Below, piece after piece: positions 58,270-58,680 of a stretch of 64,000 bases of DNA. The DNA lies in the IMG/VR virus record IMGVR_UViG_3300042868_005134, positions 303,636 to 367,635 of that record, one strand, 5' to 3'. Both the position numbers and the translations under genes were made by a program. Positions within the stretch are counted from its first letter, which is position 1, and every line of letters begins with the position of its first letter. Under the pieces are notes generated by a model. The model was not told the DNA's origin and searched no databases. It saw nothing but the letters and a program-made list of their open reading frames with translations. The DNA is from a virus.

Positions 58270-58346
58270 TGGTACCCCTAGGCAGATTCGAACCGCCATC
58301 CAGCAGATTTTAAGTCTACCCGCACTACCAATTAGCGTACAGGGGC
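58270..58346 (-). tRNA. tRNA with anticodon UAA (nominally Leu), class-I shape. It is member 1 of a paralogous family.
   Basis: It begins GCCCCTGTACGCTAATTGGTAGTGCGG. The anticodon arm is GTAGA-CTTAAAA-TCTGC. The variable loop is 5 nt and the discriminator is A73. Confidence 0.55.
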
Positions 58347-58523
58347 ATAAATATTTTTGTGAAAACTTACGATCACTTAACACCGCAAGGATTACAGTTT
58401 CACCTTTGTTTGTACCAAGGTGTGTGCTGTGTTATGGTACACGATATATACGACAACACCTACTTCGAATTACAATACTTCACTGACGTTAACAAAGCAC
58501 TTCGCTTTGTCAACAATTTATAA

Positions 58524-58600
58524 TGGTACCCCTTGTCTGATTCGAACAGACAGCCAACTCCTTTTGAGAGAATCCGCACTACCAATTAGCGTAAAGGGGC
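58524..58600 (-). tRNA. tRNA with anticodon CAA (nominally Leu), class-I shape. It is member 2 of the family.
   Basis: It begins GCCCCTTTACGCTAATTGGTAGTGCGG. The anticodon arm is ATTCT-CTCAAAA-GGAGT. The stem changes are compensatory relative to member 1. Confidence 0.55.
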
Positions 58601-58603
58601 ATA

Positions 58604-58680
58604 TGGTACCTTCGGGCGGGTTCGAACCCCCAACCAACAGTTTCTAAAACTATCCGCACTCCCAATTAGCGTACGAAGGC
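58604..58680 (-). tRNA. tRNA with anticodon UAG (nominally Leu), class-I shape. It is member 3 of the family.
   Basis: It begins GCCTTCGTACGCTAATTGGGAGTGCGG. The anticodon arm is ATAGT-TTTAGAA-ACTGT. Confidence 0.55.

Follow-up and report, generated by a model that had tools for sequence, protein, structure and literature searches.

Is a transfer RNA (tRNA) that carries a leucine (Leu) anticodon and lacks the long variable arm of canonical tRNA-Leu still a leucine tRNA? The question is raised by a tRNA array in the genome of a jumbo phage from an abundant uncultured clade. We analyzed a window of 64,000 nucleotides (nt) of this genome (IMG/VR record IMGVR_UViG_3300042868_005134, positions 303,636 to 367,635), and coordinates below are those of the window unless another record or locus is named. 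Three genes between 58270 and 58680 (hereafter the trio) bear the anticodons UAA, CAA and UAG, and a fourth gene at 54486-54562 bears UAG again (Table 1). All four have the short variable loop of class I tRNAs. A preliminary description of the locus, made from the sequence alone, raised the alternative that the trio is not charged with Leu at all. Inferring charging from the features set out below, we conclude that the four genes are probably functional phage-encoded leucine tRNAs of type I.

Four tRNA-Leu genes with a 5-nt variable loop

ARAGORN, Rfam and direct reading bear out the three genes as they had been described: each is 77 nt long with its anticodon at position 35 (ARAGORN), ends in A73 and an encoded CCA, and has a variable loop of 5 nt (UGGAU, UGGCU and UGGUU in the UAA, CAA and UAG genes, respectively) and an anticodon loop of 7 nt (CUUAAAA, CUCAAAA and UUUAGAA). 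Like the fourth gene, they exceed the gathering score of Rfam family RF00005 (29 bits). The acceptor stem of 7 base pairs (bp), which includes G1.U72, is followed by U8 and A9, by a 3-bp D stem (CGC/GCG) around U13-AAUUGGUAG-U22 in which U13 and U22 are mismatched, and by G26 and a 5-bp anticodon stem; the T loop reads UUCGAAU or UUCGAAC. The D loop is AAUUGGUAG in the UAA gene and AAUUGGGAG in the UAG gene of the trio, where G replaces U20. A length of 77 nt, CCA included, leaves no room for a long arm, and none of the four genes has the variable arm that defines class II.

The trio is a paralogous family, as had been proposed: the stretch from U8 to G26 (UACGCUAAUUGGKAGUGCGG) is identical at 20/20 and 19/20 positions. 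The preliminary description had called the acceptor, D and T arms nearly identical, which holds for the D-arm region only; the acceptor and T stems differ and covary, and pairwise identity over the full length is 61, 59 and 53 of 77. The compensatory changes claimed for the anticodon stem are there, since three distinct paired stems can be read (GUAGA/UCUGC, AUUCU/GGAGU and AUAGU/ACUGU). The UAG paralogue has a G51.G63 mismatch in its T stem that recurs in its orthologues. The comparison shows that the three genes are duplicates of one ancestral gene whose anticodons changed afterwards.

The fourth gene had been set apart as unrelated. It is not unrelated in kind, for it has the same short-arm Leu-type architecture (D arm AUG-G-AAUUGGUAU-A-CGU, G9, variable loop AUUUU, G1-C72, A73 and CCA), and it is the most leucine-like of the four. 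Of the 30 D arms nearest to its own, 29 are those of long-armed Leu genes. It belongs to a different short-arm subfamily from the trio, one that is widespread in many viral contigs. The gene adjoins tRNA-Met(CAU), and at that place the loci L005 and L080 have a long-armed tRNA-Leu(UAG), with which it aligns save for a gap of 8 nt in the variable part. The difference reflects either loss of the arm in situ or replacement of the gene. A structural pattern made of the D loop, the spacing, an NAR anticodon and the T loop matched the window exactly four times, at the four Leu genes, and had 0 matches in 100 shuffles of the window.

Table 1. Coordinates of the tRNA genes, neighboring genes and related genes discussed in the text
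Feature	Location	Strand	Basis and remarks
tRNA gene array holding the four Leu genes	52110..60925	minus	about 40 tRNA genes; ARAGORN and Rfam
tRNA-Leu(UAA), type I	58270..58346	minus	ARAGORN; Rfam RF00005 50.2 bits; covariance model R1 61.3 vs R2 51.6 bits
tRNA-Leu(CAA), type I	58524..58600	minus	ARAGORN; Rfam RF00005 49.9 bits; covariance model R1 55.8 vs R2 51.4 bits
tRNA-Leu(UAG), type I	58604..58680	minus	ARAGORN; Rfam RF00005 44.5 bits; covariance model R1 53.0 vs R2 51.1 bits
tRNA-Leu(UAG), type I, fourth gene	54486..54562	minus	ARAGORN; Rfam RF00005 59.0 bits; covariance model R1 80.5 vs R2 60.5 bits
tRNA-Ser(GCU), 90 nt, long arm	53668-53757 and 59088-59177	minus	ARAGORN
tRNA-Ser(UGA), long variable arm	59344-59431	minus	inspection of extra Rfam matches
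tRNA-Tyr(GUA), long variable arm	55303-55384	minus	inspection of extra Rfam matches
Ro/TROVE-like DUF2828 protein	50101-51516	minus	RNA-repair-like set
AAA ATPase	48867-49967	minus	RNA-repair-like set
Dual-specificity phosphatase	47335-47802	minus	RNA-repair-like set
Metallophosphoesterase	46086-46688	minus	RNA-repair-like set
AAA_33 kinase	45616-46077	minus	RNA-repair-like set
Orthologues of tRNA-Leu(CAA)	L005:151-227, L061:9425-9501, L080:10863-10939		
Orthologues of tRNA-Leu(UAG) 58604-58680	L005:387-463, L061:9640-9716, L080:10627-10703		
Escherichia phage 4MG, 74-nt gene	KF550303 60431-60504		GGGCGAU..AUUUU..GUCGCCC-A-CCA
Vibrio phage JSF10, 74-nt gene	KY883654 17919-17992		annotated tRNA-Leu

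Conservation of the short-armed cloverleaf in viral relatives

Short-armed tRNAs were collected from IMG/VR by their shared D-loop motif, and 136 of the 137 matches have a Leu anticodon. Together with the four window genes they make 121 unique sequences, 115 of which form at least 17 of the 20 proposed cloverleaf pairs. In 66 diverse short-arm viral tRNA-Leu genes, a set pre-filtered for pairing by a filter that dropped only ~5% of sequences, the cloverleaf with a 3-bp D stem and a 5-nt variable loop pairs 98.6% of cells, compared with 33-46% when the 3' partners are slid by 1-3 columns as a control. Double-sided changes account for 509 cells of this alignment, and 0/500 shuffles match the observed values. 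The covariation thus backs a cloverleaf with a short arm. Position 9 covaries with the pair 12:23 (G9 with G12:C23 55 times, A9 with C12:G23 55 times, other combinations 6 times), as expected of the 9-12-23 base triple in a folded, L-shaped tRNA. Among the unique short-arm genes A73 and U48 occur in 116/116 and U8 in 115/116, and none of these nucleotides is in the search pattern. Short Leu tRNAs fall into at least three D-arm subfamilies.

Orthologues of the trio are found in the loci L005, L061 and L080, where each paralogue has its own acceptor and T-stem signature; the triplication therefore predates the divergence of these phages. In the Leu(UAG) orthologues of L061 and L080, three anticodon-stem pairs are fully compensated. 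These loci also carry long-armed Leu genes alongside the short trio (an 85-nt UAG gene in L005, 84-nt UAG and UAA genes in L061, and an 84-nt UAG gene in L080). Long-armed Leu genes are also carried by the locus L346; the short shape is therefore gained or lost repeatedly. In a 345-kb relative the Leu genes are all long in the part of the array seen. A blastn search of the UAA gene against E. coli genomes gave no match.

A separate observation concerns truncated copies. The 5' half of a trio-family tRNA (acceptor strand and D arm) is fused to unrelated sequence at L368:1918, L419:1486 (minus strand) and L423:1284 (minus strand). These halves may be recombination remnants or attachment-site-like duplications.

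Frequency of the shape in phages

For a census, one pattern that admits any variable-region length was run on two collections and the first 120 loci were taken from each; the figures hold for genes with the D-loop motif AATTGGKAK within the scanned part of each collection. Among the matches listed, IMG/VR gave 25 short and 112 long genes (25/137, 18%), whereas a bacterial and archaeal set with one genome per species gave 122 genes, none of them short (Fisher p = 4e-8). The lengths of the IMG/VR variable regions are bimodal, with either 5 nt or 10-18 nt. The short arm is thus atypical for bacteria, as had been supposed. It is widespread in phages and not exceptional for a phage.

GenBank records of phages already contain 74-nt genes annotated as tRNA-Leu. 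The two that we checked, from Escherichia phage 4MG and Vibrio phage JSF10, belong to other phage families (Vequintavirinae and Demerecviridae), share the architecture of the fourth gene (AUUUU loop, A73, CCA) at 83-85% identity, and are labeled in their records as tRNA-Leu only. BLAST matches annotated as tRNA-Leu also come from phages of Cronobacter, Klebsiella, Salmonella, Aeromonas, Xanthomonas and Proteus. The trio is therefore not a new class: a type I tRNA-Leu had already been described in animal mitochondria and in S. coelicolor. For its frequency in phages and its phage specificity we found no description, and no paper on short-armed phage tRNA-Leu, in the searchable literature, outside which most subscription journals lie.

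Evidence for leucine identity

The leucine identity of the four genes is well supported but not proven. The recognition set of E. coli leucyl-tRNA synthetase (LeuRS) consists of A73, A14, A15-U48, G18G19-U55C56 and U54-A58 (PMC6614811), and the full set is present in the four genes. All of them have U8-A14, A15-U48, G18G19 in a 9-nt AAYYGGKAK loop, U54-A58, and a 3-bp D stem with unpaired 13/22. They also have C3:G70, which is invariant in the family of the trio, in place of the G3:U70 of tRNA-Ala, and the features of serine identity (G73 and a long arm) are absent, the four genes having A73 and a short loop.

The body of these tRNAs was scored with structure-aware covariance models, which took over from plain isotype profiles of the hidden Markov model (HMM) type. 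Model R1 derives from 60 long-armed tRNA-Leu genes, used after the anticodon had been masked and the arm cut back to 5 nt; R2 is a matched model of non-Leu class I tRNAs with the same geometry. R1 ranks the four Leu genes at the top of the array (53.0 to 80.5 bits; Table 1), above a best non-Leu score of 47.5 bits, and the difference between R1 and R2 is +20 for the fourth gene, +9.7 for UAA, +4.4 for CAA and +1.9 for the UAG gene of the trio.

An anticodon-blind metagenome search with the D arm of the trio (TACGCTAATTGGKAGTGCGG) gave at least 120 loci and 159 copies with enough flanking sequence. Among the matches listed, 154/159 copies are intact short cloverleaves (76 unique), all with A73, and their anticodons are CAA (82 copies), UAG (37), UAA (31), CAG (3) and GAG (1), with none outside Leu. 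Thus, the body of the trio moves between the UUR and CUN boxes and never leaves Leu, as anticodon-independent leucine identity predicts. In the 76 unique members all stems are kept by covariation and the variable loop is UGGNU; 75 of them end in ACCA and 62 have G1.U72.

The meaning of the codons was assessed by masking the Leu residues that come from UUR or from CUN in two phage proteins, which were then rescored against PHROG profiles. For phrog_850 the score fell from 475.7 bits to 447.5 (UUR masked) and 440.3 (CUN masked), and masking all 35 Leu residues left 411.7 bits, compared with 415.0 bits for 35 random residues. For phrog_114 it fell from 302.1 bits to 284.6 (UUR) and 280.4 (CUN), and to 260.3 bits with all 30 Leu residues masked, compared with 276.5 bits for 30 random residues. 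Masking Leu costs at least as much as random masking, so UUR and CUN codons mean Leu in this phage, and a tRNA set charged otherwise would harm its own proteins. The phage uses all six Leu codons (UUA 34%, UUG 23%, CUU 16%, CUA 15%, CUG 9%, CUC 5%). The anticodons UAA, CAA and UAG had been noted as the Leu set of the trio; with the second UAG of the fourth gene they suffice for all six.

Comparison with known short-armed and long-armed tRNAs

A type I tRNA-Leu is defined by a Leu anticodon combined with a variable loop of 4-5 nt in which nucleotide 48 is included (PMC6614811), and the four phage genes have both. One of the closest parallels is tRNA-Leu(CAA) of Streptomyces coelicolor, a likeness that rests on shape and features and not on sequence relatedness. 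Like the phage genes, it has a 5-nt loop and coexists with long-armed isoacceptors. It requires nucleotide 48 and exactly 5 nt in the loop (PMC6614811), in keeping with the phage genes, in which U48 is invariant and the loop has 5 nt. The S. coelicolor LeuRS (ScoLeuRS) charges both this natural 5-nt-loop tRNA-Leu and a long-armed tRNA-Leu(UAA); the stem part of the long loop is dispensable to it, and the minimum for good charging is 5 nt including nucleotide 48 (PMC6614811). The two systems differ in that the Streptomyces gene is chromosomal, codes for a single isoacceptor and is described as rare, whereas the phage has the whole isoacceptor set. In addition, the Streptomyces loop is ACAGC with C48, and A73 is no identity element there, whereas A73 and U48 are invariant in the phage genes.

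Animal mitochondrial tRNA-Leu(UUR) and tRNA-Leu(CUN) share the class I shape and A73 with the phage genes and are charged by a bacterial-type LeuRS. Their D and T loops are degenerate and a synthetase is dedicated to them, whereas the phage tRNAs keep canonical elbows (G18G19 and UUCGA) and, unlike the mitochondrial ones, must presumably rely on the LeuRS of the host. Canonical class II tRNA-Leu has the D-arm architecture of the phage genes (3-bp stem, unpaired 13/22, loop AAYUGGUAG) and shares A15-U48, A73 and the anticodon set; its variable arm has 10-18 nt compared with 5 nt in the short phage forms, and the tRNA-Leu(UAG) of T5 (85 nt) is long-armed in this way. Half of the short forms, the trio included, have A9 with C12:G23, whereas class II tRNA-Leu has an invariant G9 with G12:C23. 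The nematode nev-tRNAs, a long arm with a non-Leu anticodon, are the inverse of the phage case; they illustrate how LeuRS disregards the anticodon and how the arm may be uncoupled from it (PMC3333845), and they bear mainly on the long-armed UAU tRNA at 54080-54171.

The tRNA array and its surroundings

ARAGORN places 38 tRNA genes between 52110 and 60685, all of them on the minus strand, and further Rfam tRNA-like matches extend to 60925. Of the class II tRNAs in the array only Leu is short; Ser and Tyr retain long arms, both here and in related metagenomic loci. The GC content is 41%. The proteins of the window are phage-like. Among them are an ATP-dependent ligase (phrog_114), an RNA-binding protein of the Ro/TROVE type (phrog_850), radical SAM enzymes and an AAA ATPase, as well as very large proteins that match no family. 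A megablast search of the array against 50,697 phage records gave scattered single-tRNA matches only and no close relative. An identical copy of the Ro-like protein is encoded on a 235,945-bp contig of an NCBI assembly. Thousands of relatives of this protein occur in metagenomes, on freshwater contigs that reach 345 kb, the best 120 listed being 86-96% identical; on the contigs found in this way the arrays are organized differently, their Leu tRNAs are long-armed, and no orthologues of the trio were found. A scan for sigma-70 promoters and terminators around the Leu genes gave nothing above chance.

Several neighbors of the Leu genes are observations in their own right. Adjoining the array is a minus-strand gene set that resembles RNA repair or RNA quality control (45616-51516; Table 1) and is kept in relatives. 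Within the array, a radical SAM protein (472 aa) and a nitroreductase-family protein are encoded at 55626-57743 (minus strand), and just past it, at 61895-63573 (minus strand), are a QueE-like radical SAM protein and a class I glutamine amidotransferase; QueC-like genes nearby in relatives hint at 7-deazaguanine chemistry.

Two RNAs lie immediately next to the trio. Three nt downstream of tRNA-Leu(UAA), a tRNA-like RNA of ~117 nt (58148-58266, minus strand) has an ordinary acceptor stem, D arm, T arm, A73 and CCA, with ~60 nt in place of the 17-nt anticodon arm; this segment holds a conserved hairpin (AUCCUGUUAAGGAU) and a CAGCA box. ARAGORN makes no call there and Rfam no match at E<=0.1, and a sub-threshold R1 match of 14.9 bits overlaps it. 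Homologues about 76% identical occur at L003:3384-3481, L030:10209-10306 and L044:1474-1567, with compensated acceptor, D and T stems, and the RNA resembles T5 features annotated as 'tRNA-like stable RNA with unknown functions'. The 177-nt spacer between Leu(UAA) and Leu(CAA) (58347-58523, minus strand) folds at -46.9 kcal/mol (z = -3.3) and is 70% identical over 173 nt to L080:9317-9485, within the tRNA array of L080. It may be a small structured RNA; no convincing promoter was found.

Other tRNA-like genes of the array are also unusual. ARAGORN calls a 92-nt gene at 54080-54171 (minus strand) as tRNA-Ile(UAU). Its ends show G1.U72, A73 and CCA, its D-arm loop is only 4 nt long, and it carries a long extra arm (5 bp and a 7-nt loop); its score with the Rfam model of the selenocysteine tRNA (tRNA-Sec), 32.9 bits, is under the threshold, and orthologues lie at L061:7598-7689 and L080:11033-11124. 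With its long arm, A73 and non-Leu anticodon, this tRNA is reminiscent of the nematode nev-tRNA(UAU) (PMC3333845). The nematode tRNA is reportedly charged with Leu. G1.U72 followed by A73-CCA is found both in this UAU tRNA and in tRNA-Ile(GAU) (58768-58842, minus strand). Two further tRNA-like sequences were missed by ARAGORN: one at 60840-60925 (minus strand), whose acceptor pairs well and which has CCA, an aberrant D region, a possible GUA loop and an Rfam Sec score of 26 bits, and one at 60693-60765 (minus strand), which looks like a second tRNA-Glu(UUC) with A1-U72.

Discussion

How would these tRNAs work? The Leu tRNAs would be transcribed together with the other genes of the minus-strand array and excised by host RNases, the CCA end being already encoded; the gaps of 3-12 nt between several neighbors and the encoded CCA ends suggest as much. 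The host LeuRS would then load leucine without using arm or anticodon, recognizing A73 and the core (U8-A14, A15-U48, the placement of G18G19, the 3-bp D stem and unpaired 13/22), and the charged tRNAs would decode UUR with the UAA and CAA anticodons and CUN with UAG. Bacterial LeuRS does not read the anticodon, and bacterial tyrosyl-tRNA synthetase (TyrRS) contacts the long arm. Seryl-tRNA synthetase (SerRS) uses the arm as well (PMC7609411). Because SerRS and TyrRS use the arm and LeuRS does not need it, tRNA-Leu is the only class II tRNA that can lose it, which fits the long arms kept on Ser and Tyr in the array and in related loci.

Several points weigh against type I leucine tRNAs charged by the host. 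The advantage of the Leu model is small for two trio genes (+4.4 and +1.9), and tRNA-His also has +4.4. The trio departs from the long-arm Leu consensus in having A9 and not the invariant G9, C12:G23, and U13.U22. Plain nucleotide HMM profiles, applied to the full length, with the variable region removed, or to the D-arm region only, call the fourth gene clearly Leu and are ambiguous for the trio, with Thr or Trp on top at ~20 bits; likewise, D-arm edit distance fails to separate the trio from a generic class I arm (GCUC-AAUUGGUA-GAGC). The Streptomyces type I tRNA-Leu(CAA) is not charged by E. coli LeuRS (PMC6614811), and thus not every bacterial LeuRS takes the short shape. The genome could encode further Leu tRNAs or a phage LeuRS beyond the 64-kb window, and expression and charging of the four genes are inferred from sequence.

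These points leave room for three other accounts of what the genes are. Charging with another amino acid, which would recode UUR and CUN, is scarcely credible. It draws on the class I shape, unusual for tRNA-Leu, and on the simple HMM profiles that put Thr or Trp first for two trio genes, and it is disfavored by the Leu-body covariance model, which ranks the four genes first, by the 154 copies that all keep Leu anticodons, by A73 and U48, and by the masking results, in which reading UUR and CUN as Leu aids protein-family matches as much as any residue does. Ala and Ser are contradicted by the lack of G3:U70 and of G73 or a long arm. One body with five Leu anticodons would be rejected by the synthetases for Thr, Ile, Val, Met, Lys, Arg, Phe and Trp, since these enzymes read the anticodon. 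It is also very improbable that the genes have no translational use and are decoys, regulators or decaying copies that resemble tRNAs. The Rfam scores of the trio are among the lowest of the array (44.5-50.2 bits), the UAG paralogue has its T-stem mismatch, truncated 5' halves occur in metagenomes, and the same array holds several odd tRNA-like RNAs; all of this would suit decay. Stems kept by compensation in 76 unique members and 66 diverse relatives would not, and neither would anticodon loops that keep U33 and a size of 7 nt, anticodons that stay Leu, and essentially invariant A73, U48 and ACCA, a pattern expected from selection for charging and decoding. Somewhat less improbable, though still unlikely, is charging only by a specialized LeuRS, either encoded by the phage elsewhere or a host enzyme with a Streptomyces-like leucine-specific domain. 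The LeuRS enzymes of E. coli and S. purpurogeneiscleroticus fail on the Streptomyces type I tRNA, the ability mapping to the leucine-specific domain (PMC6614811), and the window is only part of the genome. However, none of the 18 window proteins scanned against Pfam has a synthetase domain, the E. coli recognition set (A73, A14, A15-U48, G18G19) is wholly kept, and short-arm genes occur in phages of E. coli, Vibrio, Cronobacter, Klebsiella, Salmonella, Aeromonas and Xanthomonas, whose genomes are mostly 85-200 kb.

If the four genes are type I leucine tRNAs, there are at least two possible reasons for their shape. Under relaxed constraint, an arm that LeuRS can dispense with would be shed by phage genomes, which are prone to lose dispensable sequence. 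A second reason, compatible with leucine identity and in our view possible but doubtful, is counter-defense: loss of the arm would hide phage tRNA-Leu from toxins or defense enzymes that select class II tRNAs by the arm. With the same reserve, an arm-less tRNA-Leu might sustain Leu decoding when host tRNA-Leu is inactivated, candidate agents being nucleotidyltransferases of the AbiEii or MenT type or undescribed nucleases. This escape would be closed to tRNA-Ser, whose arm is needed by SerRS. AbiEii, an abortive-infection toxin, appears to have a preference for class II tRNAs. To our knowledge, no toxin inactivates bacterial tRNA-Leu via its arm during phage infection, which speaks against counter-defense. 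MenT3 needs the arm of tRNA-Ser, and removal of the arm ends preferential modification (PMC11541572); yet MenT3 shows no preference for tRNA-Leu. Schlafen nucleases were set aside as a class II-specific defense, since cleavage by the bacterial Schlafen examined to date falls on class I tRNAs (PMC13056530). The enrichment in phages (25/137 viral compared with 0/122 bacterial and archaeal genes, Fisher p = 4e-8) fits counter-defense, as do the three or more short D-arm subfamilies, the lack of lengths between 5 and 10 nt, the repeated gain or loss deduced from the long-armed Leu genes of L005, L061, L080 and L346 (in the first three beside short ones), and the RNA-repair-like genes (Ro/TROVE-like protein, kinase and phosphatases) that flank the array. 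Relaxed constraint with a deletion bias would equally yield the enrichment. If true, counter-defense would account for the ~18% of short genes among the sampled phage tRNA-Leu, the 0/122 in bacteria and archaea, and the fact that tRNA-Ser is never short.

In textbooks and in the LeuRS literature of 2019, a tRNA-Leu with a short arm figures as a rarity found in mitochondria and a few Streptomyces. Short-arm genes may receive poor scores from isotype models that were trained on class II tRNA-Leu. In our sample the shape is common and has evolved repeatedly in phage tRNA sets, those of E. coli phages included. This opens two questions in tractable systems: what the minimal in vivo recognition set of bacterial LeuRS is, and whether the variable arm may serve as a handle for anti-phage tRNA toxins.

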